A stretch of 64,000 nucleotides of DNA from a virus: IMG/VR virus record IMGVR_UViG_3300021091_000012; one strand, written 5' to 3'. Below the pieces are notes generated by a model. The model had not been told where the DNA came from. It saw only the letters and a list, made by a program, of their open reading frames with translations, and made no database searches. Below, piece by piece: positions 1,634 through 18,662 of this stretch (position 1 is the stretch's first letter; the number at the start of each line of letters is the position of its first letter). A program made the translations under genes and the position numbers.

Positions 1634-3277
1634 CTAGTAGTAGCTTGGAACTGAGGATTCTTTTTCTTCTTTTTCTTCAGGATCAAAACTGATAACGCAC
1701 TCTGTGGTAAGCAGTGTTCCAGCTACTGAGTTTGCTAGCTCTAATGCTGTACGTGTGACTTTGGTTGGATCCACAATTCCAGCCTCAAACATATTACATA
1801 CAGTGTTTTGTCTAGCGTCGTAACCGACAAATGCTGTATCCTCTTTCTTATCCTTAATAGTATGCTCAATCAAGTGAGCAACTGTATTAGGACTTTGTCC
1901 AGCATTTTCTACGATAGCACCAAATGGCGCTGCGCAGGCCTTTTTGATAATCTTTACTCCTAATGCTTGGTCGTCATTTTCTGTCTCAACTTCCAAGTTT
2001 TCACTAGCATGTAGTAGTGCCATCCCACCTCCTGCAACAATACCCTCTTCAACAGCAGCGCGGGTTGCATGTAGAGCATCATCAACTCTATCTTTTTTTT
2101 CTTTTAATTCGATCTCAGTAGCCGCACCAATATTCAGTACTGCAACTCCACCGATAAGTTTGCTTAAGCGCTCTTTTAGGAATTGCTTCTCGTAGTCGCT
2201 ATCAGCTGCTTCGTATTGATCTTTGATATATTGGATGCGCTCTTTGATTGCCTCAGAGTCTCCAGCTCCATCAACTATTACAGTCTCATCCTTATTTACT
2301 GTAACCATTCTTGCTGTTCCTAACTGGTTAGCTGCAAGTTTCTCTAACTTCATTCCTTTTTGAGTTGCTATCACTTCGCCTCCGGTTAGAATAGCCATAT
2401 CCTCTAGCATGTGAATTTTACGATCACCAAATCCTGGTGACTTAATTGCACAGATGTTCAAGATGCCTCGAGCTTTGTTTACAACCATAGTTGCAAGCGC
2501 TTCCCCATCAACATCATCTGCTACAATTAAAAGTGGCTTACCTTGCTTGCTACAACTCTCTAATAAAGCTAGTACTTCCTTAATGCTACTGATTTTTTTA
2601 TCGTAGAATAGGATTAGCGGATTCTCCAAAGTTGTACTCATTGTACTTTGATTTGATACAAAGTATGGTGAAATAAATCCACGATCAACTTGCATACCTT
2701 CAACGATCTCTAAAGTTGTCTCAGAGGTCTTACTTTCATCAACTTGGATTACACCATCCTTACCAACGCTATCCATGGCCTCAGCGATTATGTTTCCTAC
2801 GCTTGTATCATTGTTTGCAGAAATAGTTGCTACTTGACGAATTTCGTCAATAGACTTTACATCACGGCTAATTTCACGCAAAGACTCGATAACATGAGTA
2901 GTAGCTTTGTCCATTCCACGCTTTAACTCTACTGGATTAACTCCTGCATTAATAGCTTTCAATCCCTCGTTATACATGACGGAGGCTAATACTGTTGCCG
3001 TAGTTGTACCATCTCCAGCCATCTTAGCTGCCTTCATAGAAACTTCTTTGATAGCTTGTGCTCCCATATTCTCAATTGGGTCTGTAAGATAAATCTCCTT
3101 TGCAACAGTTACACCATCTTTTGTAGATATTGGTGCGCCATTCTCTTTTTCGATTAATACATTGCGACCCTTAGGGCCTAATGTGGACTTAACTGCAGAA
3201 GATAGTTTGTTTATTCCGTTGCGCACTCTATCTCGTGCTTCCACATCATAACTGATAATTCTTGACTTATTGCTCAT
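1634..3277 (-). CDS. groEL: chaperonin GroEL
   Basis: [42 protein letters not shown]; lacks the GGM tail. Confidence 0.97.
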
Positions 3278-3278
3278 G

Positions 3279-3578
3279 TTACTTGTTAATTTTTGTTATT
3301 ACATCTCGTTCCTGTACCGAGTGATACTCTACACCCTCGTATTCAAATGTTTGTGCGGCAAAGCGTTGATAAAGAATTATATCTCCAGGCTTAACTGTTG
3401 TTTCAATAAACAATCCAGGTGCTGCCCAAAAACCCTTCCCTACATACTGTACTTTTGCTTTAAGTAGTTTTTGTTCACTAATTTCAGGAAGTATAATACC
3501 TCCTTCACTCATTTCGTCTTGCTCTACCGGAAGACAAATCAGCTTATCGCTGATTGGACTAAATAAATTGTTGCTCAT
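3279..3578 (-). CDS. groES: co-chaperonin GroES
   Basis: PISDK, SEGGIILP mobile loop, VGKG, VKPGD; adjacent to groEL. Confidence 0.92.
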   Translation of the reverse strand: MSNNLFSPISDKLICLPVEQDEMSEGGIILPEISEQKLLKAKVQYVGKGFWAAPGLFIETTVKPGDIILYQRFAAQTFEYEGVEYHSVQERDVITKINK

Positions 3579-3636
3579 AATTTTATAACTGTTTTATTTA
3601 ATATAAGAAAAAAAGACCCAAGAACAACCGCTAAAG

Positions 3637-4047
3637 CTATTTAATTTGTAACTTTTTTGGTTTTGCTTCTTCAGCAAACGGCACCGTAATGATTAACAAA
3701 CCGTTTTCCATTGTAGCACTGCAGTTTGCTAAATTATACTTAGATGCAATCTTATAAGCAAGATCAAATGAGCGTCGAGCTACTCCGCGACATTGGTATG
3801 TGCGAGCTTCTTCGTCTCCTTCGTTTGATTTAGGTTTATCGTATGAGATACGAATCACATCCATTTCAATATCAATATCAACTTCATCCTTAGTTAGACC
3901 GGTGCATGCGATCTCAAGGACTAGGCCGTCTGAATGTTCATAGATGTCTACTGGGTGGGGTATTTTGACTTCTCGTAGAATATTGAAGTCGGAATGGCTG
4001 TCGAATACATTTCGGAACAGCACATCAAAGTGTGATAGTTTGTTCAT
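3637..4047 (-). CDS. small heat-shock protein, Hsp20/alpha-crystallin family
   Basis: PVDIYE, RGVARRSF, ATMENGLLIITVP, KPKKLQIK C-terminal IxI-like motif. Confidence 0.92.
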   Translation of the reverse strand: MNKLSHFDVLFRNVFDSHSDFNILREVKIPHPVDIYEHSDGLVLEIACTGLTKDEVDIDIEMDVIRISYDKPKSNEGDEEARTYQCRGVARRSFDLAYKIASKYNLANCSATMENGLLIITVPFAEEAKPKKLQIK

Positions 4048-4137
4048 AATTTACCTCCTTAGATGGTTAATAATTAATAAAAAATATAACTAGGTTGCCC
4101 TAGGGTCTGTATATAAATATATCTGTTTTTGATTAAA

Positions 4138-4818
4138 CTACGCTTGCTTAAGCAACTTTAATAAAGCACCGCGATTAATCCATCTAGATTTTGCGGTTCT
4201 GTTGGCTTCTGTGATTATATTTGACTGTGCTTGAAGAGCTTGTATTGTAGTGTCTGGCAGTCCTTGTTCCTTTATTACGCCACTAGATGGAGCAAACTGA
4301 GTAGACGTATGCTCATCATCAAAGAATGGAATTTGAAACTTGCGTCCTTTTACTTTAGTATAATAGTCGTCAGCATTATTCATATTAATAAAAACGTCTC
4401 TTTGCGCTAAAACCTGCCCATATCGATTGTCTGTGTATATTAAACTGAAAGTCATACCATCATATGTTTTGCCACCTTTAGTATCTGTAAGCTTTTCACC
4501 AAAGATTATAGACTCTTGACTAAATTGTTTTCCTAATTCTAGAGCTTCTTTTTTGGTTATATTTGGAATAAAAAAAGAATTTTCTGGACCACCATAGTGT
4601 CCTTTTACCTTCTTAAAGCCCAAATTCATTACACGTAATCGCTTTTCTAGCTCATTGTTTGCTTGTTTATTTGTAGCTGTGTCTGCGGCTTGTCCGTTTG
4701 GGTTTTCTGCTGTGAGGAAAGCTAGTGTTTGTACAGTAGGAACTAGTCCGCGCATAATATTAACTACACGAGCATATCCTGCTTCATTAAGTATCTGTTT
4801 AAGTTTTAAATTATTCAT
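4138..4818 (-). CDS. DUF3293-like protein with putative head-targeting N-terminus
   Basis: FLTAENPNG...N..L...G.Y..ENSF...QESI pattern; begins MNNLKLKQILNE. Confidence 0.5.
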   Translation of the reverse strand: MNNLKLKQILNEAGYARVVNIMRGLVPTVQTLAFLTAENPNGQAADTATNKQANNELEKRLRVMNLGFKKVKGHYGGPENSFFIPNITKKEALELGKQFSQESIIFGEKLTDTKGGKTYDGMTFSLIYTDNRYGQVLAQRDVFINMNNADDYYTKVKGRKFQIPFFDDEHTSTQFAPSSGVIKEQGLPDTTIQALQAQSNIITEANRTAKSRWINRGALLKLLKQA

Positions 4819-4829
4819 GTTAATTATAA

Positions 4830-7070
4830 TTATTGATGTCCTTCTCCAAAATTATCCGCAATGTTTGGCTCTGCTACTAGTCCAGTTGCTATTTGTACAG
4901 TATTCTCCATACATTCTTTTGTGATAGCACAAGCTCTCTGTGCATGTTCTGCTTTGGCGTTAATCACAAACTCGTCGTGAATCTGCAACATGATACATGC
5001 ATCTAGTCCTTCTTCCTTAAAGCGCTTGTGAATTTGTATTGCTGATCTATTCATAATGGATGCTGCTAGAGATTGTATTTGAAAGTTCTTACAGTTGTTA
5101 AGACCATTCTTGTACTCCATACGAAGCTTCATTAGCTGTTGAGTTTGTTCGGGTGTCTTGGCCATTCGCTTCATTTGAGAAAACGGACCTGGTTCAATAA
5201 GACTGTTCTCAAACTTCTCGTAGATTCTCTTTACTCGATCTAAGTGACGAATACGTCCAGTTTGGTTTTTAACATATCCAAACGTCTGAGCTTTAAGATG
5301 ACTATCGCTCATCCACTTTGCCAATTCAGGGAAACCTTCTAAGTATCCATCGATCATCTTCTGTGCTTCTCTAATCTCGATATTGAGCGATTGACCAATT
5401 TGCCACGCACCTGCTCCATAAGGAATAGCAAGTGCAATACTTTTTGCTCTTTGTCTAAGCTCTGGTCGCAAGTTCTTAACATAGTTGTCATCACTTTTTT
5501 TTGCCGACATGCCTCTAAGCTTAAACGCTTGAATAGCCACTCTACAATATAAATCCTCATTGTTGATAAATACGTTAATCAAATTTGGGTCATTACTTAC
5601 TGATGCGAACACTCGAGGCTCCAAAGACGACTGATCACAGATAATAAACTTTCTACCATCCTCAGCTTTCAAAAAGCTACGAATAATGTTGTTGTATCTA
5701 AGTACTAACTCACTTTGCTCTCCTTCTTCCAACACACGAGGTAGCTGTTGGCAGTCGGAGCTAAAACGACCTGAGGTAGTTCCATGTTGTTTGAAGTACC
5801 AGTAATATCTTCCGTCTTCATTTCCGTCTAGGAAACGATCGACGTATGCAGATTGTATCTTGTTGAGTTTGTTGTAGTCTCTTAGTTTAGCAGCCCAAGC
5901 ATGGTCTTTATGTATATGTTCGATGAAGTCATCGTCAAACTGATCTGTTCCTTTCTTTGTTTGGCTAATAGGCTTTATGCCCATATATTTAAAACACATC
6001 TCAGAAAGCTGTTGCTTACTACTAATATTGATGAATGCACCTTCTTTTTGCTTAAGGAGCTCAAGACTAATAGCAATCTTATCTTGATCATTAAGGTCCT
6101 TATCATCTCCTGTCTGCAAAAACTTCTGTCCAGCAGCTGGATCAATAAGCTGTGGTAGCTTCTCTTCAATTAGCTTTCCGTAATGTCCTCTTTTCTTTGG
6201 AGGATGGTTTGTTAATGCCTTAGCTACAACCCACTGTTGCACTTGACCATTCTTCATTAAGTCCGAAATGATTTCTTGCTCAAGTCTTAGAATATTTGCG
6301 TTGATGTCTTTCTTTGTTTTCTCGATTAGTGGAATATCTAACTCTGTACCGGTCTCTTCCATTTGTATAGTTACCGTCTTGTAGAGTGGCATCACCTCAT
6401 CGTTGAAAAAGAAATCCCACAATCCCTGCTCTTTAAGTACTGGCAGGTAGTATGTCATAACTCGAAGTGTCAAATCGGTATCTGCTGCTGCGTACTCTCC
6501 TAACAAGCTCATATTTGCTTTAAAAATTTCAAAGTTGGTCTTTGTAATACTACCACCATTCCTTTGAATAGACTCTTTTAGTTTTACTTGCTCTTCGTTA
6601 GCTTCTTTCTCAGCATCTAGTCCTAATTCATTTTGAATCTCAATAGCAATGTCTTTCAAACCAAAAGGACCATCCTCTTGTAGAGTATGGCGTAGTAACA
6701 TCGTATCACAATACAGATCATCTCGCAAATCAACACCATAAAAGTTTTTAGTGTACCGGACGTCAAACGAGGCGTTATGCATTACTAGCTTTTTGCCTTT
6801 TAGCATGTTGATAAGTTGGCGTGCAATGTCGTCGCACTTCTTGCCACCAATATAAGAATCTATAAGCGATTGACTATCAACATCCCAATATCTAGTTGGA
6901 AAGTAATAACCTTCTCCAATATCTGCAGAAACAGAAAAACCAATGATCATTCCATTTCTTGGATTAACACTAGTCGTCTCAGTATCGTATGCGATAATGT
7001 TTCCGTTCTTAATATAGTTGGCCAGCTCTACGACACCAGCTTCGTCGGTTATGATTTTATATTTTTTCAT
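4830..7070 (-). CDS. polA: family A DNA polymerase with 3'-5' exonuclease (replicative)
   Basis: ExoI DTETT, ExoII HNASFD, ExoIII YAAAD; TTSGRFSS; motif A CDQSSLEPR, motif B RQRAKSIALAIPYG, motif C QIHDE. Confidence 0.95.
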   Translation of the reverse strand: MKKYKIITDEAGVVELANYIKNGNIIAYDTETTSVNPRNGMIIGFSVSADIGEGYYFPTRYWDVDSQSLIDSYIGGKKCDDIARQLINMLKGKKLVMHNASFDVRYTKNFYGVDLRDDLYCDTMLLRHTLQEDGPFGLKDIAIEIQNELGLDAEKEANEEQVKLKESIQRNGGSITKTNFEIFKANMSLLGEYAAADTDLTLRVMTYYLPVLKEQGLWDFFFNDEVMPLYKTVTIQMEETGTELDIPLIEKTKKDINANILRLEQEIISDLMKNGQVQQWVVAKALTNHPPKKRGHYGKLIEEKLPQLIDPAAGQKFLQTGDDKDLNDQDKIAISLELLKQKEGAFINISSKQQLSEMCFKYMGIKPISQTKKGTDQFDDDFIEHIHKDHAWAAKLRDYNKLNKIQSAYVDRFLDGNEDGRYYWYFKQHGTTSGRFSSDCQQLPRVLEEGEQSELVLRYNNIIRSFLKAEDGRKFIICDQSSLEPRVFASVSNDPNLINVFINNEDLYCRVAIQAFKLRGMSAKKSDDNYVKNLRPELRQRAKSIALAIPYGAGAWQIGQSLNIEIREAQKMIDGYLEGFPELAKWMSDSHLKAQTFGYVKNQTGRIRHLDRVKRIYEKFENSLIEPGPFSQMKRMAKTPEQTQQLMKLRMEYKNGLNNCKNFQIQSLAASIMNRSAIQIHKRFKEEGLDACIMLQIHDEFVINAKAEHAQRACAITKECMENTVQIATGLVAEPNIADNFGEGHQ

Positions 7071-8542: not shown

Positions 8543-8573
8543 AAAAAAAAAAGCCAACTTTTTTTAGTTGGCT
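8543..8573 (-). terminator. intrinsic terminator closing the deazaguanine operon
   Basis: AGCCAACT...AGTTGGCT hairpin plus long T run on the minus strand. Confidence 0.8.
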
Positions 8574-8594
8574 CTTATTGTCTGGGAGGCGTGT

Positions 8595-9419
8595 TTATAT
8601 AATTGTTATTGGTCGATGGCATTGTGAGCTGAGAAAGGCAACATTGCTCTTTACAAGATCCATATCAATATTGCTCATGTCGTAAGTCTCCAAAAAGCTA
8701 TGTGGAGTTGGGATACGAGTAGTATGGTCTACACTAAAGTCCTGTCCATGTGCAGCTGCTAGTACTGGGAACACTGAGTCAGTGCTTCGTATCATTGGAT
8801 GATCGTAGTATGCAAATTCAGTTGGATCTCCTTGACCTAGGCAGTGGATTGGCTTCTTGAGCATGTCTCTTTCCTTCAAATAATCATATGCTGCATGACG
8901 AGCTTCTTTAATGTATTGATCATCTTGATAAGTTCTAAGGTTGCTGAAGTGATCATCTGACATCCATGCACTCGGAATTGCAATCTTAGAGAATCCGATT
9001 ACATCAATCCAATCTTGATTAATACCCCACTCATAGGCTTCCAACCAATCCTCCTTAGTTTTACCTTGAGGACAGAAAAAGAGGTCTATGTGAAAAAGAT
9101 CAGACAACCCTTCTGCTCGCAGTCTTTCTCTAAAAGAGATGGCGTTAGCAATTGTAGCGTCCTTATCAAATAAAACATCTGGTGCAATTACTTCATCAGG
9201 TAACAACTCCTTGCAGATATCTATTAAAACGTCCTCAGTAACCAAAGCTCTTTCTGCTGCTGAGTTATCTAATGTGATCCAATAACCCTCTTCTTTGCGA
9301 GCTTTAATGAACTCTCGGTACTCAGGAAACTGCACCCATAAGTGAGCCAATGCAAAGATTCGATCTCCCAGCTTCATTGGCTCTAAGTTGCTAACTGGTG
9401 ATATAACGTAAAAATCCAT
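8595..9419 (-). CDS. dpdA: DpdA-like / TGT-fold DNA guanine transglycosylase
   Basis: TGT-like motifs LDNS, PD, PQG, IHCLG, RSTDS; located in a que-gene cluster. Subfamily not assignable by eye. Confidence 0.65.
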   Translation of the reverse strand: MDFYVISPVSNLEPMKLGDRIFALAHLWVQFPEYREFIKARKEEGYWITLDNSAAERALVTEDVLIDICKELLPDEVIAPDVLFDKDATIANAISFRERLRAEGLSDLFHIDLFFCPQGKTKEDWLEAYEWGINQDWIDVIGFSKIAIPSAWMSDDHFSNLRTYQDDQYIKEARHAAYDYLKERDMLKKPIHCLGQGDPTEFAYYDHPMIRSTDSVFPVLAAAHGQDFSVDHTTRIPTPHSFLETYDMSNIDMDLVKSNVAFLSSQCHRPITII

Positions 9420-9437: not shown

Positions 9438-10439
9438 TTAACAAACTAAACTTCTATAAACTTCTACAGGAACATCAGATGTTAAGCCACCCTCAACTCC
9501 CTTCACAATAACCGATATAGCATCGTGTGAGTGTAGCGATTCCAAATGTGAACATATCACTTTAAAGTCTAAAACCCTTGAGTGTTCATCTAATCTCTGA
9601 TGTAACAGTCTAGCAGCATCCTCAACAAACTTCAGATTTGCACCATTTAGTTCAGCAAAAGCCTGCTCATCCTCACGTTTAACCATTACTTGTGTTTCTG
9701 TCTGTAAAGCTTCAATACATAGGTCTCTCACATCCTCAATCCAAATCATATCGTCAAACTCTATTGTAATTCGTGTTTTTGATCGTTGAGAGTGTGATAC
9801 AACTGCCTTATTGCGCTCCTCCATCGCTTGCATAGCCAGCTCAAAGCTGCAAGGACATGCTGATGAATATACAAAATCGAAGTGTAGGTATTTCTTGAGA
9901 TCACCGTTTTGTTTGTGATGAGCTTCTAACGATACGTTATAGTATTGGTAACCAGATAGACCACTTCTCAGTGAGTTTTGGATTATTGGAAATGAGAAGT
10001 TTAATATAATGTGTGCATCATATGATCCTAATTTCTCTTTGTACGATTTTAATACAGTCTCTAGTAAATCAATCGAGAACGTATTATCTTTGTATTCATA
10101 GAATGTTCTCATAATTCTTGACATGTTAATGCCCTTCTTCTCAGCCTCTAATGATACAGTTCCCGTTACAGAAGTCTCTAACTCGATCTCTCCGCCTTCC
10201 TTTAATTTATACTTAATAGGAAGTCTGAAATTATGAATACCTACTTGTTGTATTTTTACATGCGAACCTTGTATGTTAGAGGATGGTCCATTTTGTAAAT
10301 CGTGCAATGTACACACATACTCTTCATTGGATTTGAAATCCTTATCATACGATCTGTCTAGTTTGTTAGAAAGTGAATTAGGATTGTCTTTGTATGGGAT
10401 ACCGCAATCGTCTCCCAACCACTCGTAGTTTCCTGCCAT
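9438..10439 (-). CDS. folE2: GTP cyclohydrolase I type IB
   Basis: IQQVGI, KGINMSRI, SSACPCS, HSQRS, VKREDEQ, FVEDAAR, ESLHSHDA. Confidence 0.93.
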   Translation of the reverse strand: MAGNYEWLGDDCGIPYKDNPNSLSNKLDRSYDKDFKSNEEYVCTLHDLQNGPSSNIQGSHVKIQQVGIHNFRLPIKYKLKEGGEIELETSVTGTVSLEAEKKGINMSRIMRTFYEYKDNTFSIDLLETVLKSYKEKLGSYDAHIILNFSFPIIQNSLRSGLSGYQYYNVSLEAHHKQNGDLKKYLHFDFVYSSACPCSFELAMQAMEERNKAVVSHSQRSKTRITIEFDDMIWIEDVRDLCIEALQTETQVMVKREDEQAFAELNGANLKFVEDAARLLHQRLDEHSRVLDFKVICSHLESLHSHDAISVIVKGVEGGLTSDVPVEVYRSLVC

Positions 10440-10457: not shown

Positions 10458-10937
10458 TTAATAGTTGTGTATAATTTGTAACCTTTCTTCGAATATATTA
10501 AAAATCTTTTGACATTCCAACTCGATTGGCATATTGTCTGCTAAATCGAAAGGCTCAACGTCTTTTTCTGCATTGCGTGTTTCGTATCGTCGTTTACGTG
10601 TTTCGGTAGGAACTTCTATCCATATTAGTTCGCTTTTTGGATAATACTCCAGCACTTTTTCAACAATACTAGCTTGTCGGATCCCGTCAACAATAATTGT
10701 TTTTCTTTCAATGAGATTTTTTTCTATTGCTGTTGTTAATGCATCTAAGCAGCTAATAATCTCTTCAGCAATTCGCTCATCCAAATGCATTGTTTGTTGT
10801 AGTTTGTTGCGATCTTTGCTTTGTATTAAATCGCGAACAATATTAGATACCACTATACGATAGCTAGTAGTGTCATTAAAGGACGACTTTCCGCTACATA
10901 TTCGTCCAAACAAAAAAAGTATATCTGATTTTTTCAT
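10458..10937 (-). CDS. P-loop nucleoside/nucleotide-monophosphate kinase-like protein (probable start 10937)
   Basis: LFGRICSGKS Walker A, IIVDGIR Walker B-like, RxxR lid (ETRKRR); ATGA overlap with the upstream gene. Confidence 0.7.
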   Translation of the reverse strand: MKKSDILFLFGRICSGKSSFNDTTSYRIVVSNIVRDLIQSKDRNKLQQTMHLDERIAEEIISCLDALTTAIEKNLIERKTIIVDGIRQASIVEKVLEYYPKSELIWIEVPTETRKRRYETRNAEKDVEPFDLADNMPIELECQKIFNIFEERLQIIHNY

Positions 10938-11275
10938 AACTCTACTATACCAAAAAATTCTCCATCTTCCGACACTGAGCATCGACAAAGTCCAAAGTAA
11001 TTTAATAAATCTTCTGCTATCATTTCACAAGACATAGCTCCAAAGTTGCAGCAACCGTAGGCTGGATCGTACCAAGTGCTTGCAATATATTTCTTGATCT
11101 TGTGCTTGAAGTCAATGAACTCAATATCACGATCACCATGACTTACCTCTGCTCTACAAACAATCTGAAAGGTGTGTCTATGTAGATGTGCTAAATAATC
11201 TACGTGTGGCAAGTTGCAATCTGGCCAGTGATGCAATCCTTCTACATCTATTCTTATTTCTACAAACTTCTTCAT
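10934..11275 (-). CDS. dpdL: QueD-paralogous T-fold protein, DpdL-like (predicted CDG decarboxylase)
   Basis: HHWPDC, LAHLHRHTF (LxxxHRHxF), DRDIEF, SCEMIAE, VSEDGE; a separate canonical QueD is also present. Confidence 0.65.
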   Translation of the reverse strand: MKKFVEIRIDVEGLHHWPDCNLPHVDYLAHLHRHTFQIVCRAEVSHGDRDIEFIDFKHKIKKYIASTWYDPAYGCCNFGAMSCEMIAEDLLNYFGLCRCSVSEDGEFFGIVEL

Positions 11276-11757
11276 TACTTCTTATCTTTATCTTTTTGCC
11301 ATTGACCATCGTACAAATCCGCTGGAGTATTCTCTAGCATGATTATCTGAGCTACTCGTGCTCCTTTCTCAATGTGCATTTTATTGTTAACAAACATAAC
11401 TCCACCCATCTCATCTACTTCAAATCCTGGATCATAAACTCCAGATGTGATGATTGCTCCACAGCGTAGAATGGATGATCTGTGTCGAATAAATGCCGTC
11501 CTATTCTCAGGAAGCTTGCAGCCTTGATCGAACGTCAACGAATATACTCCCGGCTCGAGTGTAAAGATATATTTACCGGTTGGTGATAGGGTTGGTTGAA
11601 CTAGCTCGTAATCTTCTACGACGGTTTTGTCTTTGAGGACCATGCCTCCATAAACCCTATTGACTGCTTTTAGTGTGAGGTCGTAACCTACTTGAGCTTT
11701 TGCTCCTTTGTTATTTGTCTGTAGCAACTCGGCTACTTGATCTGCGTTTAATAACAT
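11275..11757 (-). CDS. trimeric dUTPase / dCTP-deaminase-fold protein
   Basis: GYDL, RSS, SGVYDPGF, GARVAQ, C-terminal YDGQWQ; the deaminase-type Glu after the DPG motif is not obvious. Confidence 0.8.
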   Translation of the reverse strand: MLLNADQVAELLQTNNKGAKAQVGYDLTLKAVNRVYGGMVLKDKTVVEDYELVQPTLSPTGKYIFTLEPGVYSLTFDQGCKLPENRTAFIRHRSSILRCGAIITSGVYDPGFEVDEMGGVMFVNNKMHIEKGARVAQIIMLENTPADLYDGQWQKDKDKK

Positions 11758-11777
11758 AACTTCTGATTGATTTTAAA

Positions 11778-11808
11778 TTAATATATGATAAGCTTTCGTA
11801 ATTTGCAA
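11778..11808 (-). promoter_or_regulatory. TTG-N20-TATATTAA promoter driving dut-dpdL-kinase-folE2-dpdA
   Basis: Exact 20-nt spacer. Confidence 0.6.
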
Positions 11809-11882
11809 CTACTAAATCTAGTAAGTCTAGGTGGCCTACATTGTCTGGGCATAGGCCTATAATATGTAACAGTTCGTGCATG

Positions 11883-12659
11883 CTAAACTCCTCTCTTTGT
11901 ATCGTAAGCAATAATATGATCTCGTCCAGTCATGTTGTAACCCTTTTCAGCACACATCTCAAAAACAATAGGATACATCTTGATAAGCTCTTCTCTTGTA
12001 TCGCCAGCTGGCATAATATACGTCTTTTCTTTTGGAATCAAAAGCTCTAGTCTAAAATTTTCTATTTCTTTAAGATTGGATTCTGTACCATCCCATACCG
12101 GCTTGTAGTGATAATCTGAATGGTAGGTCAATGTTTCTTTTATTGCTGATATGTTTAACCTAAACTTGTTATGCTGCGCAACCATCCTTTCATCCGTAAT
12201 CGTGCCTTGCGGCGTAGGAGTACCCACAACGGGAACGCTATTGCTAAACTTAGGACTAAGACTGATAAGCCCAATAGGATAATCGGTAGCAATAAAATGC
12301 GAGCCCTCAGTTTCAATTGTGATAAGAATGTCTTTTTCATGTGCAAAATGGGTTAGCTCGTTTACTAATGCTGGATGCATTGTAGGTGATCCACCAGTAA
12401 GCATCATCTCCTTAACGTGTGGATTCTCGTCATATATCCTTATGATATCATTAAACGTGAAGGTCCCCTTCTCTGGATGAATACTAGTGTACCAGCTGTC
12501 GCACCATCCTCCTTCTCCAAAGAAGCATCTGTGAGTGCATCCGGTTGTTCGTACTGCGATTGTTGGTCGGCCAAATCTTGACCCTTCTGATTGTACACAT
12601 CGATAGAGTTCAACTATCGGTAGTATTTTATTGTAATCTGTAACTCTTCCTGGTTTCAT
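11883..12659 (-). CDS. queE: 7-carboxy-7-deazaguanine synthase (radical SAM)
   Basis: ELYRCVQSEG, VRTTGC, CTHRC-x7-CDS, LTGGSP, IETEG, SLSPK. Confidence 0.92.
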   Translation of the reverse strand: MKPGRVTDYNKILPIVELYRCVQSEGSRFGRPTIAVRTTGCTHRCFFGEGGWCDSWYTSIHPEKGTFTFNDIIRIYDENPHVKEMMLTGGSPTMHPALVNELTHFAHEKDILITIETEGSHFIATDYPIGLISLSPKFSNSVPVVGTPTPQGTITDERMVAQHNKFRLNISAIKETLTYHSDYHYKPVWDGTESNLKEIENFRLELLIPKEKTYIMPAGDTREELIKMYPIVFEMCAEKGYNMTGRDHIIAYDTKRGV

Positions 12660-12961: not shown

Positions 12962-13438
12962 TTATTCTTCATAGATACTTGAGTTTTTATCGTTTTCAAA
13001 ACATTCAACTTTAATGCACTTGCAACGTCCTGCATCTGTTTTAGACAACACGTCGTTGAATTTATCGTACACTAGCTTTGCACAAGACTCTGCTCCCATC
13101 TTCTCCATGAAGTGAACTTTAGCAAGTCCCATCTGGCCTAGCTGTTCAAATATATCTGCATACGGATCATCCTTTTGAATTAGTAAAGTGTGATCCCACA
13201 TATGATCCATCCACGACTTTAAGCCGTTGCCTACTGGAGCATCTTTGAAACCTCCATAGTCCACAATCCAATTCATATCATCTAGTTGATTTTCTTCTAG
13301 TGGTTCGTTGGATGCAAACCAAACTTTAAACTTTAGAGCATATCCGTGTAGCAATTCACAATGTGAGTGTGATGCTTTCCATTGACGGATTGCAACTGAG
13401 TAATTGTCAAATAACTTTGTTGAAATGTATCTACCCAT
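12962..13438 (-). CDS. queD: 6-carboxytetrahydropterin synthase
   Basis: CELLHGY (CxxxHGH-like), DYG, WDHTLL, AES, FEN T-fold motifs. Confidence 0.88.
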   Translation of the reverse strand: MGRYISTKLFDNYSVAIRQWKASHSHCELLHGYALKFKVWFASNEPLEENQLDDMNWIVDYGGFKDAPVGNGLKSWMDHMWDHTLLIQKDDPYADIFEQLGQMGLAKVHFMEKMGAESCAKLVYDKFNDVLSKTDAGRCKCIKVECFENDKNSSIYEE

Positions 13439-14256: not shown

Positions 14257-14295
14257 TAAATATACTAAAAAAGGCTTACATTTGCAAGCCTTTTA
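14257..14295 (-). promoter_or_regulatory. TTG-N20-TATATTTA promoter embedded in a terminator hairpin
   Basis: AAAAGGCTTGCA-AA-TGTAAGCCTTTTTT hairpin contains the TTG; -7 box lies just past the T run. Confidence 0.65.
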
Positions 14296-16805: not shown

Positions 16806-18662
16806 TTATACTATTTCACATGCACCACCTGCACAAGCTGCTTCTCCTTTAAGGTTGGTAGTGTCATCAAGTTCAACAACTTTACTCAAATCTACGTCCT
16901 TCAAAGAGTCCATCATTCTATTATAAGTATCTTCGTCAATGTCTTCAAATGGTGCTTGAATGTAGGTTCCTCCGTTATATGGTAGTACAGACAAACCGTT
17001 GTAGTGTTCGCGGTTATTCCACATCCACTCACCAGCTAGATCCCACTCATCCTCTTTCAGAGATACTGTAGCTGATACGTTGTGTGAGTTGTTACCCGAC
17101 CTATGTCCTGGTTTAACCCACTCCAAGTGTACTCTCTTGATTCGCTCTAATAAAGCAAAAGGAGATTCTGTACGTAAGATCGCGCCTTCGGGTGCTTTCT
17201 GTGGAATAGAGATTACTGCAGTATCGTGTGGACGGAAGTACTCATCCTCAACAAGCTCAGGGTGATTAATTGATAGGTATGTGTAGATTGCTTCATTCTT
17301 TCCTACTCGGATTCTACGAATGTAGAAATCGTTATGCCAAGCGTGGATACCTGACGAAGTGCCCAATGTAAGTGATGTTGTTCCTGCCGGCTTAACAGTC
17401 GTAGCTCTTGCAGACTTGTTGATACCAATAAGCTCAGCCACTCTAGCATTTTCATCCTTAACAACCTTCGCGGCTGCTTTCATATCATATCCCAACACTG
17501 TACCTGATCCGATACCAGTCATTGAAACTCCAATCAAAGCATCTTTTTCAGTTGTTCTTTTCCACACATCTCTCAAGTAATGGAAATCTGTATAACCTGC
17601 TTGAAGTGTTCCAATGAACGCAGCAGCACGTACTCTACTTTCGAAGTCTTGTTGATCTACAATGTCCGACACATTAACCTCGCAGAGGTTACAGAACTGG
17701 AAAGGTCGTAGTGCAATCTCACAGCATGGATTAGTTCCCCAATCTTTATCGTTTGTTAGGTAGATTCCTGGTTCACCTGCTCCTGATAATTCAACACGCT
17801 TCCAAAGATCCATGAAGAACTCCTTGGTAAGTTTGTGTCTCATTAACACAGCTGAGTTATTTGCTCTACCTCTTTGTGCGTTTTGCTCCCACCAGTTACC
17901 TGACTTACAAGAAATCATCTCCTCATCGTCAGCACTAAACAAGCTAATAAGAGCTGCTCTGCGAATACCACCGGCCAATACTGCATCCGCAATATGACAT
18001 ACCATGTCGTGTACTTCAATTGATGATAGTTTATCTCCATCTTCTTTTGAGTCTAAAATTCCTTGTAATTTTATTAAACATTCTTTTAGTGGCTGAGGAC
18101 CTGGTGCTTTCCCTCCTGACGTCACTAGACGTGCACCTTTTGGTCGAATGTCACTAAAATCAAACTCTAATCGAGATCCTCCAGTGAAGTAAGACTTAAT
18201 ACAATACTTAACTGCATCTGCCCATCCTTCAATAGAGTCCGCTATCAAGTAGCGTCTTTTTCTTTTTGAGACCGGTTTACGGATCTCAGGTAATCTTTCT
18301 ACGTGATGTGTTTGCACTGAGTAACCAACTCCTGTTCCTCCTAACAATAAAAACATAGCTTCGCCAAAAGCACGAACATCGTCGATTGGTAGGTAAGCAC
18401 AGTTGTAAATTCTATTAGGTGAGATCTCGACTGGCTTTCCAGCAAACTGCATACTGCGCATTGAAGGTAAAACCTTCTTACCATACACAAACTGGTAGAC
18501 GTCTTCGATTTCTTTTGCCAATTGTGGATACTTTCGAATGTGCATTTCTTTGTTTCTTATAACTAATTCCTGCCAAGTTTCTCTTCTTTGCAGTTTGGGT
18601 AAGTACTTTGCGTACTTCATAAAGACAGTGATCTCGCTTAGGATTTCATTCGAAAGTGTCAT
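16806..18662 (-). CDS. nrdJ: class II (B12-dependent, monomeric type) ribonucleotide reductase
   Basis: YNC, GTGVG, GGIRRAA, TNPCCEI, FCNL, TVKPAGTTS, C-terminal CAGGAC; no NrdB nearby. Confidence 0.9.
   Translation of the reverse strand: MTLSNEILSEITVFMKYAKYLPKLQRRETWQELVIRNKEMHIRKYPQLAKEIEDVYQFVYGKKVLPSMRSMQFAGKPVEISPNRIYNCAYLPIDDVRAFGEAMFLLLGGTGVGYSVQTHHVERLPEIRKPVSKRKRRYLIADSIEGWADAVKYCIKSYFTGGSRLEFDFSDIRPKGARLVTSGGKAPGPQPLKECLIKLQGILDSKEDGDKLSSIEVHDMVCHIADAVLAGGIRRAALISLFSADDEEMISCKSGNWWEQNAQRGRANNSAVLMRHKLTKEFFMDLWKRVELSGAGEPGIYLTNDKDWGTNPCCEIALRPFQFCNLCEVNVSDIVDQQDFESRVRAAAFIGTLQAGYTDFHYLRDVWKRTTEKDALIGVSMTGIGSGTVLGYDMKAAAKVVKDENARVAELIGINKSARATTVKPAGTTSLTLGTSSGIHAWHNDFYIRRIRVGKNEAIYTYLSINHPELVEDEYFRPHDTAVISIPQKAPEGAILRTESPFALLERIKRVHLEWVKPGHRSGNNSHNVSATVSLKEDEWDLAGEWMWNNREHYNGLSVLPYNGGTYIQAPFEDIDEDTYNRMMDSLKDVDLSKVVELDDTTNLKGEAACAGGACEIV

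Follow-up and report, generated by a model that had tools for sequence, protein, structure and literature searches.

The complete replacement of guanine by a 7-deazapurine in phage DNA is an unsettled problem. In the published model a transglycosylase exchanges the base on DNA, yet reconstitution by expression of DpdL and DpdA in E. coli yielded no 2'-deoxy-7-deazaguanosine (dDG; Cui, Hutinet et al., NAR 2023, PMC10516641). The DpdA3-encoding phages tested, phiST, phi19:2 and phi13:1, all show full replacement of G by dDG (PMC10516641), and the presence of DpdA3 led the authors to a post-replicative model, which the preliminary description of the present locus rendered accurately. The locus belongs to a ~165-kb phage with a myovirus backbone, of which a 64-kb window (the whole stretch of DNA analysed) was read. 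It raises the question of what a P-loop kinase and a dUTPase-fold protein, encoded on either side of dpdL, contribute to such a pathway.

The deazaguanine operon

Five genes on the minus strand, in the order DCD/dUTPase-fold gene, dpdL, P-loop kinase gene, folE2 and dpdA3, form the core of the locus (Table 1). All five are real, and their identities and operonic arrangement, as first proposed, were confirmed. The junctions between the dut-like gene and dpdL (TAATG, 1-nt overlap) and between dpdL and the kinase gene (ATGA, 4-nt overlap) also read as claimed, and gaps of 18 nt each separate the kinase gene from folE2 and folE2 from dpdA3. The true start of the kinase gene is the ATG at 10937; the ORF list had offered a TTG at 10988. 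A 66-aa ORF between queE and the dut-like gene (11711-11911) was rejected; the gaps at this place in relatives measure just 18-128 nt. The operon had been described as bracketed by one promoter and one terminator. The terminator is strong and lies 19 nt past the dpdA3 stop, whereas the promoter is only a consensus match: such matches are not enriched (14 observed versus 20.8 expected from shuffles), the same TTGCAA/TATATT hexamer pair is found again ahead of the queD/queE stretch (14287-14259), and a single promoter for the operon is not established because no terminator was found between queE and the dut-like gene. The cluster lies between the polymerase and ribonucleotide reductase (RNR) genes.

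Table 1. Features of the deazaguanine locus and its surroundings (window coordinates).
Feature	Coordinates	Strand	Evidence
RNR, class II-like (context)	16806..18662	-	Pfam Ribonuc_red_lgC + RNR-II insertion domain
QueD (6-carboxytetrahydropterin synthase)	12962..13438	-	Pfam PTPS 2.3e-11; PHROG QueD-like 5.5e-32; C-x3-H-G motif in translation
QueE (7-carboxy-7-deazaguanine synthase, radical SAM)	11883..12659	-	PHROG 2076 QueE-like 6.4e-48; 62-67% identity to phiST and immuto QueE
Sigma-70-like promoter match TTGCAA-17-TATATT	11780..11808	-	9/12 positions; weak evidence
DCD/dUTPase-fold dNTP pyrophosphatase-like protein, 160 aa	11275..11757	-	Pfam DCD 3.1e-12, dUTPase 1.7e-6
DpdL (QueD paralogue, proposed CDG decarboxylase)	10934..11275	-	tblastn to phiST CGPG_00067: 37.5%, E 1e-13; L-x3-H-R-H-x-F
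Adenylate-kinase-like nucleoside-monophosphate kinase, 159 aa	10458..10937	-	Pfam AAA_18; homologue of phiST CGPG_00066
FolE2 (GTP cyclohydrolase IB)	9438..10439	-	Pfam GCHY-1 4.8e-70; NCBIfam FolE2 274 bits, above cut-off
DpdA3 (short TGT-like transglycosylase)	8595..9419	-	40% to phiST CGPG_00065, E 2e-59; PHROG 20335 3.4e-50
Intrinsic terminator 3' of dpdA3	8549..8576	-	11-pair stem, 6-nt loop, T run
Family A DNA polymerase (context: replication module)	4830..7070	-	Pfam DNA_pol_A 2.4e-62

Judged by its genes, the operon is a phiST-type, QueC-less module for the substitution of dDG into DNA, and guanine in the DNA of this phage is most likely replaced by 7-deazaguanine. FolE2, QueD and QueE represent the GTP cyclohydrolase I, QueD and QueE by which such modules are recognized; no match to QueC, QueF or a phosphoribosyltransferase (PRTase) was found within the 64-kb window. 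Together these three enzymes would make 7-carboxy-7-deazaguanine, and DpdL and DpdA3 would round off the set. DpdL carries the defining motif L-x3-H-R-H-x-F (PMC10516641) where QueD has C-x3-H-G-H. The match to CGPG_00065 and the conserved LDNS...PD...RSxDS core place the transglycosylase in the DpdA3 subfamily; its profile gave only marginal TGT/DpdA matches among PDB sequences (E ~0.3, one segment only), so that the case for kinship of DpdA3 with TGT is made by the conserved motifs and by the HHpred result in the literature. The Cellulophaga phage phiST (FolE, QueD, QueE, DpdL and DpdA3; PMC10516641) shares the pathway genes, the absence of QueC, the DpdL signature, a DpdA3 40% identical to the present one and a homologous kinase, and the order NTPase-DpdL-kinase-DpdA3 is common to our locus, phiST and Chryseobacterium phage MA9V-3. 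In contrast to the 79-kb phiST, our phage has FolE2 in the slot that holds FolE in most relatives, and a DCD/dUTPase-fold protein in place of the MazG/dimeric-dUTPase-like CGPG_00068. An ESM Atlas look-up of the domain fused to the DpdL of MA9V-3 returned unnamed viral clusters only.

The predicted kinase and pyrophosphatase

The P-loop protein bears every hallmark of a nucleoside-monophosphate (NMP) kinase and is predicted to be one from its motifs and modelled fold. The model (pLDDT 90) most closely resembles UMP-CMP kinase, AK1 and AMP-bound SSO1041, and its top 30 Foldseek matches consist of UMP-CMP/adenylate kinases and SSO1041 (probability 1.00, TM 0.6-0.66). The P-loop, DGIRQ and R-x2-R-x3-R...KD motifs are invariant. 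An alignment of 26 sequences shows little or no variation at G12, K18, R36/R44, D85-G-I-R88 and R115/R118/R122/D127, and these residues align with the corresponding motifs of 3lw7. With SSO1041 (archaeal UPF0200, PDB 3lw7, AMP-bound) the protein thus shares the kinase fold, the P-loop, the NMP-binding Arg that follows strand 2, DG-x-R and the short LID arginines. It differs from SSO1041 and from adenylate-kinase-like NMP kinases in its low identity to them (16-20%) and in having close homologues in viral and metagenomic sequence only. The fold does not separate ribo- from deoxynucleotide substrates. The protein is 32% identical to CGPG_00066 of phiST (E 8e-15); for the neighbour in MA9V-3 the figure is 37%. 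CGPG_00066 was given no function, and no homologues were reported among other deazaguanine phages (PMC10516641); the latter statement is overturned by the homologues identified here.

The dUTPase-fold protein is a member of the trimeric dUTPase/DCD superfamily by sequence and model, and a predicted dNTP pyrophosphatase. Its model (pLDDT 90) has DCD-DUT and archaeal dUTPases (2qlp, 4xjc, 2zdc) as best folds, and its PDB profile match is 9w59 (1.6e-17), an entry on which a literature search found nothing relevant. R93-S94-S95, R98, D109-P-G-F and Y149-x-G151-Q152 are invariant in the subfamily; the motifs that bind phosphate and sugar (RSS-x2-R, DPGF and C-terminal Y-x-G-Q-x-Q) are all kept, and the triphosphate-binding motifs are intact. 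In a profile alignment to 4xjc, every subfamily member has a hydrophobic residue at the position of the T-L-E glutamate, and dCTP deaminase activity was rejected because this catalytic Glu is absent. Archaeal DCD-family dUTPases (PRK02253; 9w59, 2zdc, 8y1w) likewise lack the deaminase Glu and share the fold, RSS-x2-R, DPGF and Y-x-G-Q-W/Y-Q. By homology alone they (9w59, PRK02253) are the nearest relatives. The phage protein differs from them in scoring 88.8 bits against NCBIfam PRK02253, below the 130-bit equivalog cut-off, in the near-complete confinement of its subfamily to phage deazaguanine clusters and in occurring alongside a canonical dUTPase in phage D479 (see below). The activities known to be common to the DCD/dUTPase and MazG/dimeric-dUTPase folds are hydrolysis of dUTP and of dCTP, an indication of a pyrimidine role, and no case of a purine occupying the pocket of a trimeric dUTPase fold is known to us.

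Linkage to deazaguanine genes

Co-occurrence of the kinase with dpd genes, suggested as a check in the preliminary description, was assessed across phage and prokaryotic genomes, and no independent distribution was seen. An alignment-based scan of IMG/VR found the kinase in 47 contigs (a single-protein pattern scan gave 1 locus only), 45 of which also encode DpdA3. In 43 contigs dpd genes lie within 6 kb, in 2 DpdA3 is located elsewhere on the contig, and the 2 contigs without DpdA3 are both 5-8% fragments. DpdA3 relatives are themselves rare, amounting to some hundreds in a set of 2.9 million viral contigs. A tblastn search with the kinase against 50,697 phage records produced only 6 matches, all phiST-like or MA9V-3, and 185,579 prokaryotic species genomes contained no close homologue and 8 remote relatives (23-29% identity), none of them near dpd genes. 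Of all accessory genes, the DCD-like gene has the widest linkage: its subfamily was found at 71 further viral loci, and 68 of these sit in deazaguanine clusters.

Loci with the kinase or the DCD-like gene show at least six gene orders. DpdL is immediately 5' of the kinase in 40 related loci, and 38 of these have an overlap or a gap of at most 15 nt at the junction. Divergence of the kinase correlates poorly with that of DpdA3 (Spearman 0.24); some loci combine 50-58% identity in the kinase with 28-31% in DpdA3, and the opposite pattern occurs too. On this comparison of gene orders and divergence, the linkage is more than simple vertical synteny. It is not universal, as 4 of 19 DpdL-type DpdA3 clusters lack kinase and NTPase within 5 ORFs, and no match to the kinase family was found in other DpdL phages (PA5oct, ACP17 and Xanthomonas X1).

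The linkage also proved wider than originally claimed: in other DpdA3 phages, the equivalent positions are taken by non-homologous kinases (AAA_28, T4-type DNMK) and NTPases (MazG/PRA-PH). Flavobacterium phage immuto encodes a PRA-PH/MazG protein, DpdA3, an AAA_28 kinase and a Gpt-like PRTase; in Campylobacter phage IBB_35 an AAA_28 kinase adjoins DpdA3; and Vibrio phage D479 and Aeromonas phage Ahp1 share the gene order DpdA3-DNMK-DCD-like. D479 additionally has a canonical dUTPase (63.5 bits) and Ahp1 a canonical gp1-type DNMK (168 bits), and the module-linked genes of these two phages are, by homology, extra copies. By sequence, the kinase and NTPase slots show non-orthologous displacement. 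Considering the linkage, the non-homologous counterparts and the extra canonical copies, both proteins of our locus are therefore very probably dedicated, co-inherited parts of the module and not products of ordinary housekeeping genes. A PRTase is present elsewhere in the phiST genome and in complete relatives.

A possible nucleotide-pool route to 7-deazaguanine DNA

To our knowledge, all complete base replacements that have been studied well (T4 hmC, SPO1 hmU, S-2L Z) take place before replication and combine a dNTPase with a reaction on the dNMP. In T4 these functions involve the dCTPase gp56, gp42 and the dNMP kinase gp1, and in S-2L and other Z-genomes DatZ, MazZ and PurZ. The DpdA3 modules would follow the same logic, with joint encoding of a dNTP pyrophosphatase, a monophosphate-level step and a kinase reserved for the monophosphate, and with one base fully replaced. 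They differ in using other enzyme families and in the putative base installer, either a PRTase or a transglycosylase of the TGT type. By this analogy, the mechanism we consider most likely, with a chance just short of even, is that complete guanine replacement makes use, at least in part, of the nucleotide pool, before replication.

In such a route, a pyrophosphatase of the dUTPase fold (elsewhere of the MazG type) would convert a canonical dNTP, presumably dGTP, to the monophosphate, which would both remove the competitor and supply the acceptor. 7-Deazaguanine would enter at the mononucleotide level through base exchange on dGMP by DpdA3 or, where a relative encodes a Gpt-like phosphoribosyltransferase, by a reaction with PRPP like the one in tubercidin biosynthesis. 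The dedicated kinase would then form the diphosphate, as host guanylate kinase may not accept the modified monophosphate, and host NDP kinase followed by the phage polymerase would achieve incorporation into DNA. 7-Deaza-dGTP is a good polymerase substrate.

The tubercidin pathway of Streptomyces, outlined in bioRxiv 10.64898/2026.04.15.718813, proceeds from CDG: a PRTase turns the 7-deazapurine into a nucleotide, and the pathway further comprises a decarboxylase and tailoring of the nucleotide. It resembles the phage module in being QueC-less, and its PRTase step is a precedent for 7-deazapurine chemistry at the nucleotide level. However, its decarboxylase belongs to the UbiD family and is not a QueD paralogue, its product is a secondary metabolite and not DNA, and the PRTase has no counterpart in our window.

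One element is the proposed exchange of G for 7-deazaguanine by DpdA3, which would then not, or not solely, be a transglycosylase of DNA, on a mononucleotide such as dGMP; this exchange together with a dGTP pyrophosphatase and the kinase would constitute a pathway to 7-deaza-dGTP. We consider this specific scheme rather doubtful; the TGT/DpdA enzymes characterised to date act, as far as we know, on polynucleotides. If true, it would explain why 100% substitution is found in DpdA3 phages only and would run counter to the claim of 2023 that deazaguanine modification of DNA always follows replication, which would have to be given up. A complex prediction for DpdA3 and the kinase (score 0.00) was counted neither for nor against. 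A literature search found no published pre-replicative deazaguanine route and no role for the kinase. The nucleotide-level arm that had been put forward as undescribed is, as an idea, not wholly new: a modified-dGTP route was floated in 2019 for Campylobacter phages, according to passages of PMC6884629 that cite Crippen et al., and was abandoned in 2023. The ADG nucleoside has been detected in infected Campylobacter (PMC10516641).

Alternative explanations

The linked genes can also be reconciled with the published model. DpdA3 would then swap G in finished DNA, and the kinase, the NTPase and, in relatives, the Gpt-like PRTase would serve precursor economy by returning the guanine set free from DNA through GMP and GDP to GTP for FolE, because one GTP is spent per deazaguanine. 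This combination agrees with the membership of DpdA3 in the TGT family and its conserved catalytic core, and with the argument that every deazaguanine virus encodes DpdA (PMC10516641). The PRTases of relatives, which are nearest to xanthine/guanine PRTases and are often directly beside FolE, fit it as well, as does a kinase fold compatible with ribo or deoxy substrates. We nevertheless hold it unlikely. A deoxynucleotide-specific pyrophosphatase fold has no part to play in supplying GTP, although no other accessory gene is linked as widely; several of the linked kinases are of the T4 DNMK family, of which gp1 acts on deoxynucleotides, and Ahp1 has one as an extra paralogue; and a kinase family restricted to DpdA3 phages is hard to account for if host guanylate kinase suffices.

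That the two proteins are an ordinary dUTPase and a general dNMP (e.g., thymidylate) kinase, placed beside the dpd genes only by the clustering of early nucleotide-metabolism genes in replication modules, appears improbable. In its favour, dUTPases are the characterised proteins to which the NTPase is most closely related, polymerase and RNR genes flank the cluster, and thymidylate synthase genes are found in or beside it in some relatives (thyA at the MA9V-3 cluster; ThyX between DpdL and the kinase in loci L086 and L089). Moreover, one 98%-complete relative (G001) has no second dUTPase-like gene and no second recognised dNMP kinase. However, a general kinase should be neither limited to DpdA3 contigs nor absent from the other phage records searched, and D479 and Ahp1 retain canonical copies besides. 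Two relatives, 98% and 100% complete, keep both genes and have no ThyA or ThyX, so that no phage dTTP pathway accounts for the kinase and the NTPase. The linkage outlasts rearrangement and partner reassortment, and the tight junction of DpdL and kinase, here a 4-nt overlap, is conserved. Far less probable still is a role in sanitising, by destruction or re-phosphorylation of stray modified nucleotides, or in further hypermodification by phosphorylation of the modified base or DNA, as the preliminary description had also envisaged. Only the gene linkage speaks for it; a glycosyltransferase directly 3' of DpdA3 in some relatives makes further decoration of the base an existing theme. The kinase, however, has the full motifs and fold of NMP kinases and no features of DNA or base kinases, and phiST DNA contains plain dDG and no heavier species (PMC10516641).

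Implications

Our comparison of phage genomes shows a predicted monophosphate kinase and a predicted dNTP pyrophosphatase to be regular, dedicated parts of DpdA3 modules. This result turns the question of how guanine is replaced into simple experiments on the cultured phages phiST, MA9V-3 and immuto. If the nucleotide-pool route is true, these modules would contain enzymes for the biological synthesis of 7-deaza-dGTP, the failed reconstitution in E. coli would be explained, and a purine case would join the classical pyrimidine examples of pre-replicative base substitution.

Organization of the deazaguanine operon

The exact kinase sequence of the window is on record in a contig of 164,721 bp, the phage contig from which the window derives. 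Almost every gene of the window lies on the minus strand, and the deazaguanine cluster (see table) sits in a replication module, with the family A polymerase on one side and a class II-like ribonucleotide reductase, DnaB, FEN, RecA, and a gp32-like protein on the other. Judging by its genes for a tail sheath and a T4-type baseplate, the phage is a myovirus. Just past the polymerase (1634-4818) are genes for a Cpn60/GroEL-like chaperonin, Hsp20, and a DUF3293 protein that weakly matches S-adenosylmethionine lyase. QueC, QueF, and phosphoribosyltransferase genes were not found in the 64-kb window. The preliminary description had claimed overlaps at the dut-like/dpdL (TAATG) and dpdL/kinase (ATGA) junctions, which the sequence bears out. 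It had also placed the genes between a promoter and a terminator; the terminator is strong, but the promoter at 11808-11780 amounts to a consensus match that is not enriched over shuffled sequences. An identical hexamer pair occurs upstream of the queD/queE stretch. The motif TTGCAAAT-N15-TATATT, present in two of the cluster's intergenic regions (14259-14287 and 11780-11808), may be a phage promoter consensus.

Features of the deazaguanine cluster and its flank, genes of the cluster in order of transcription
Feature	Position	Strand	Location
QueD	12962-13438	-	first in the cluster
QueE	11883-12659	-	second, after QueD
dCTP-deaminase/dUTPase-fold protein	11275-11757	-	third, after QueE
DpdL	10934-11275	-	fourth, after the dUTPase-fold gene
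P-loop kinase	10458-10937	-	fifth, after DpdL
FolE2	9438-10439	-	sixth, between kinase and DpdA3
DpdA3	8595-9419	-	seventh, last gene before the terminator
Intrinsic terminator, strong	8576-8549	-	3' of DpdA3
Family A polymerase	4830-7070	-	one flank of the cluster

The operon is a putative QueC-less module for 2'-deoxy-7-deazaguanosine (dDG) as in Cellulophaga phage phiST, in whose DNA every G is replaced by dDG (PMC10516641). The short transglycosylase DpdA3 and DpdL, a proposed 7-carboxy-7-deazaguanine (CDG) decarboxylase with the published L-x3-HRH-x-F signature, are 40% and 37.5% identical to CGPG_00065 and CGPG_00067 of phiST, respectively. CGPG_00066 is homologous to the window kinase (32% identity, E 8e-15), and the local order (MazG-like/DpdL/CGPG_00066/DpdA3) is the same, except that the MazG-like gene occupies the place of the dUTPase-fold gene. 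Chryseobacterium phage MA9V-3 has a dCTP deaminase (DCD)-like gene, a DpdL fusion, the kinase (37% identical), and DpdA3, ordered as in the window. The domain fused to the DpdL N-terminus in MA9V-3, and in the IMG/VR loci L083/L087, is an unknown one of ~170 aa; several other loci encode it on its own, between FolE and DpdA3 (e.g., L001:6443-6997; L017:6211-6717; L018:7355-7903). Pfam gave no match to this domain, and its only Atlas matches were unnamed viral clusters, the closest comprising 2,092 members. FolE2 (GTP cyclohydrolase IB, here extended by 44 aa at the N-terminus) fills a slot where most relatives have an unrelated FolE (e.g., L005:6478-7104), a non-orthologous displacement within the operon; it was found also in L024, L084, L098, and L111.

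Linkage of the kinase to dpd genes

CGPG_00066 was assigned no role, and its homologs were said to be absent from other deazaguanine phages (PMC10516641). Our literature search found neither a published role for the kinase nor a report of its distribution. A large protein collection contained 357 relatives of this family, which among 50,697 phage records is restricted to phiST-like phages and MA9V-3. The co-occurrence with dpdL/dpdA that the preliminary description had proposed to test was found: of the 47 IMG/VR contigs recovered with an alignment-based scan, 43 have dpd genes within 6 kb of the kinase, and DCD-like, DpdL, kinase, FolE, DpdA3 is the usual order. Two further contigs carry DpdA3 elsewhere, and the last two are fragments, each covering an estimated 5-8% of a genome. 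This exceeds chance, because DpdA3 relatives number only hundreds in 2.9 million viral contigs. DpdL and kinase overlap or are at most 15 nt apart in 38 of 40 loci. In prokaryotes (185,579 species, one genome each), only eight remote kinase relatives (23-29% identity) were found, none of them close to dpd genes. A family-2-like glycosyltransferase is encoded directly 3' of DpdA3 in one group of loci that have the kinase (L089:5789-6460; homologs in L085, L086, L092, L095, L096).

Gene order varies: the DCD-like gene may follow DpdA3, ThyX may separate DpdL from the kinase, the kinase may be tens of kilobases from DpdA3, and queD/queE/folE may be inverted relative to the remaining genes. The divergences of kinase and DpdA3 are weakly correlated (Spearman 0.24, 18 loci), and in some loci the kinase is 50-58% identical to that of the window and DpdA3 28-31%, whereas others show the opposite pattern. 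Reassortment of the partners has therefore taken place, yet they have stayed together. The smallest backbone is that of a 79-kb phage, and the largest is a contig of 229 kb or more. Sequence comparison thus argues for a linkage beyond inherited synteny.

DpdA3-like genes of unrelated phages adjoin non-homologous enzymes of the same two kinds, kinase and NTPase. Flavobacterium phage immuto, with full fdPreQ1 substitution, encodes a Gpt-like phosphoribosyltransferase, a PRA-PH/MazG hydrolase, DpdA3, DpdN, and an AAA_28 kinase; in Campylobacter phage IBB_35 an AAA_28 kinase follows DpdA3, and in Bacillus phage BSTP12 a P-loop protein directly precedes the DpdA3-like gene. Vibrio phage D479 and Aeromonas phage Ahp1 encode DpdA3, a T4-type deoxynucleoside-monophosphate kinase, and a DCD-like protein consecutively, besides a canonical dUTPase (D479) or a canonical gp1-type kinase (Ahp1). 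The linkage to DpdA3 is strong but short of universal: grouping at 70% identity gave 34 DpdA3 clusters, and 15 of the 19 DpdL-type ones have a kinase and/or NTPase within five ORFs. A scan from the DCD-like protein placed 68 of 71 further viral loci in deazaguanine clusters of several architectures, QueC-type among them. In 14 T4-like loci without an adjacent kinase (L135:5818-6150 and 13 others), DpdA3 and the DCD-like gene are separated by a gene for a DUF3310 protein. In L120 (3209-3745), L116, L117, and L123, a dUTPase-like ORF close to a DpdA3-like gene has an additional match to an intein splicing domain.

Predicted functions and a possible nucleotide-level route

The kinase model (pLDDT 90) matches UMP-CMP kinase, adenylate kinases, and the AMP-bound Sulfolobus protein SSO1041, which was also recovered by a profile search. 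The P-loop, an arginine of the NMP-binding segment, DGIRQ, and short LID arginines are invariant in the family, a predicted nucleoside-monophosphate kinase. The dUTPase-fold model (pLDDT 90) matches bifunctional DCD-DUT enzymes and archaeal dUTPases. This protein retains the RSS-x2-R, DPGF, and C-terminal Y-x-G-Q-W-Q motifs, but a hydrophobic residue replaces the catalytic glutamate of dCTP deaminase, an assignment that was rejected for this reason, and its score falls short of the cut-off for the archaeal dUTPase equivalog. These features make it a dNTP pyrophosphatase-like enzyme rather than a deaminase.

For Campylobacter phages, a route via modified dGTP was proposed in 2019 (PMC6884629, citing Crippen et al.). 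It was set aside in 2023, when all deazaguanine DNA modifications were concluded to be post-replicative; DpdL and DpdA in E. coli gave no dDG (PMC10516641). The most likely mechanism here, at a chance that we put just short of even, is nonetheless a nucleotide-level route, for which we infer the substrates and the order of steps. The pyrophosphatase would remove a canonical dNTP, giving the monophosphate; 7-deazaguanine would enter at the mononucleotide level; the kinase would take the product back towards the triphosphate; and the polymerase would incorporate the modified nucleotide. T4 and Z-genome phages follow the same logic. In tubercidin biosynthesis, CDG becomes a nucleotide via a phosphoribosyltransferase and is decarboxylated at that level (bioRxiv 10.64898/2026.04.15.718813). 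Phosphoribosyltransferase genes are in or near many deazaguanine clusters, in some relatives between queE and the DCD-like gene; in phiST (NC_020842.1, 28224-28571) and complete relatives (e.g., the 98%-complete G001, 156259-156693) they lie far from the dpd cluster.

Several points speak against a nucleotide-level route. The NTPase resembles a dUTPase, and dUTP is the substrate of its nearest characterized relatives; to our knowledge, the two NTPase folds have only pyrimidine activities in common. Polynucleotides are the substrates of the TGT-family enzymes characterized to date. Thymidylate synthase genes are nearby in some relatives, but this argument is weakened by two near-complete relatives that keep both genes without any thymidylate synthase. 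The strongest rival, salvage that feeds GTP back to FolE, is less likely than the nucleotide-level route. Beyond the linkage, folds, motifs, and extra-copy status of linked genes established in this analysis, the kinase and the dUTPase-fold gene are very probably dedicated parts of the deazaguanine module.
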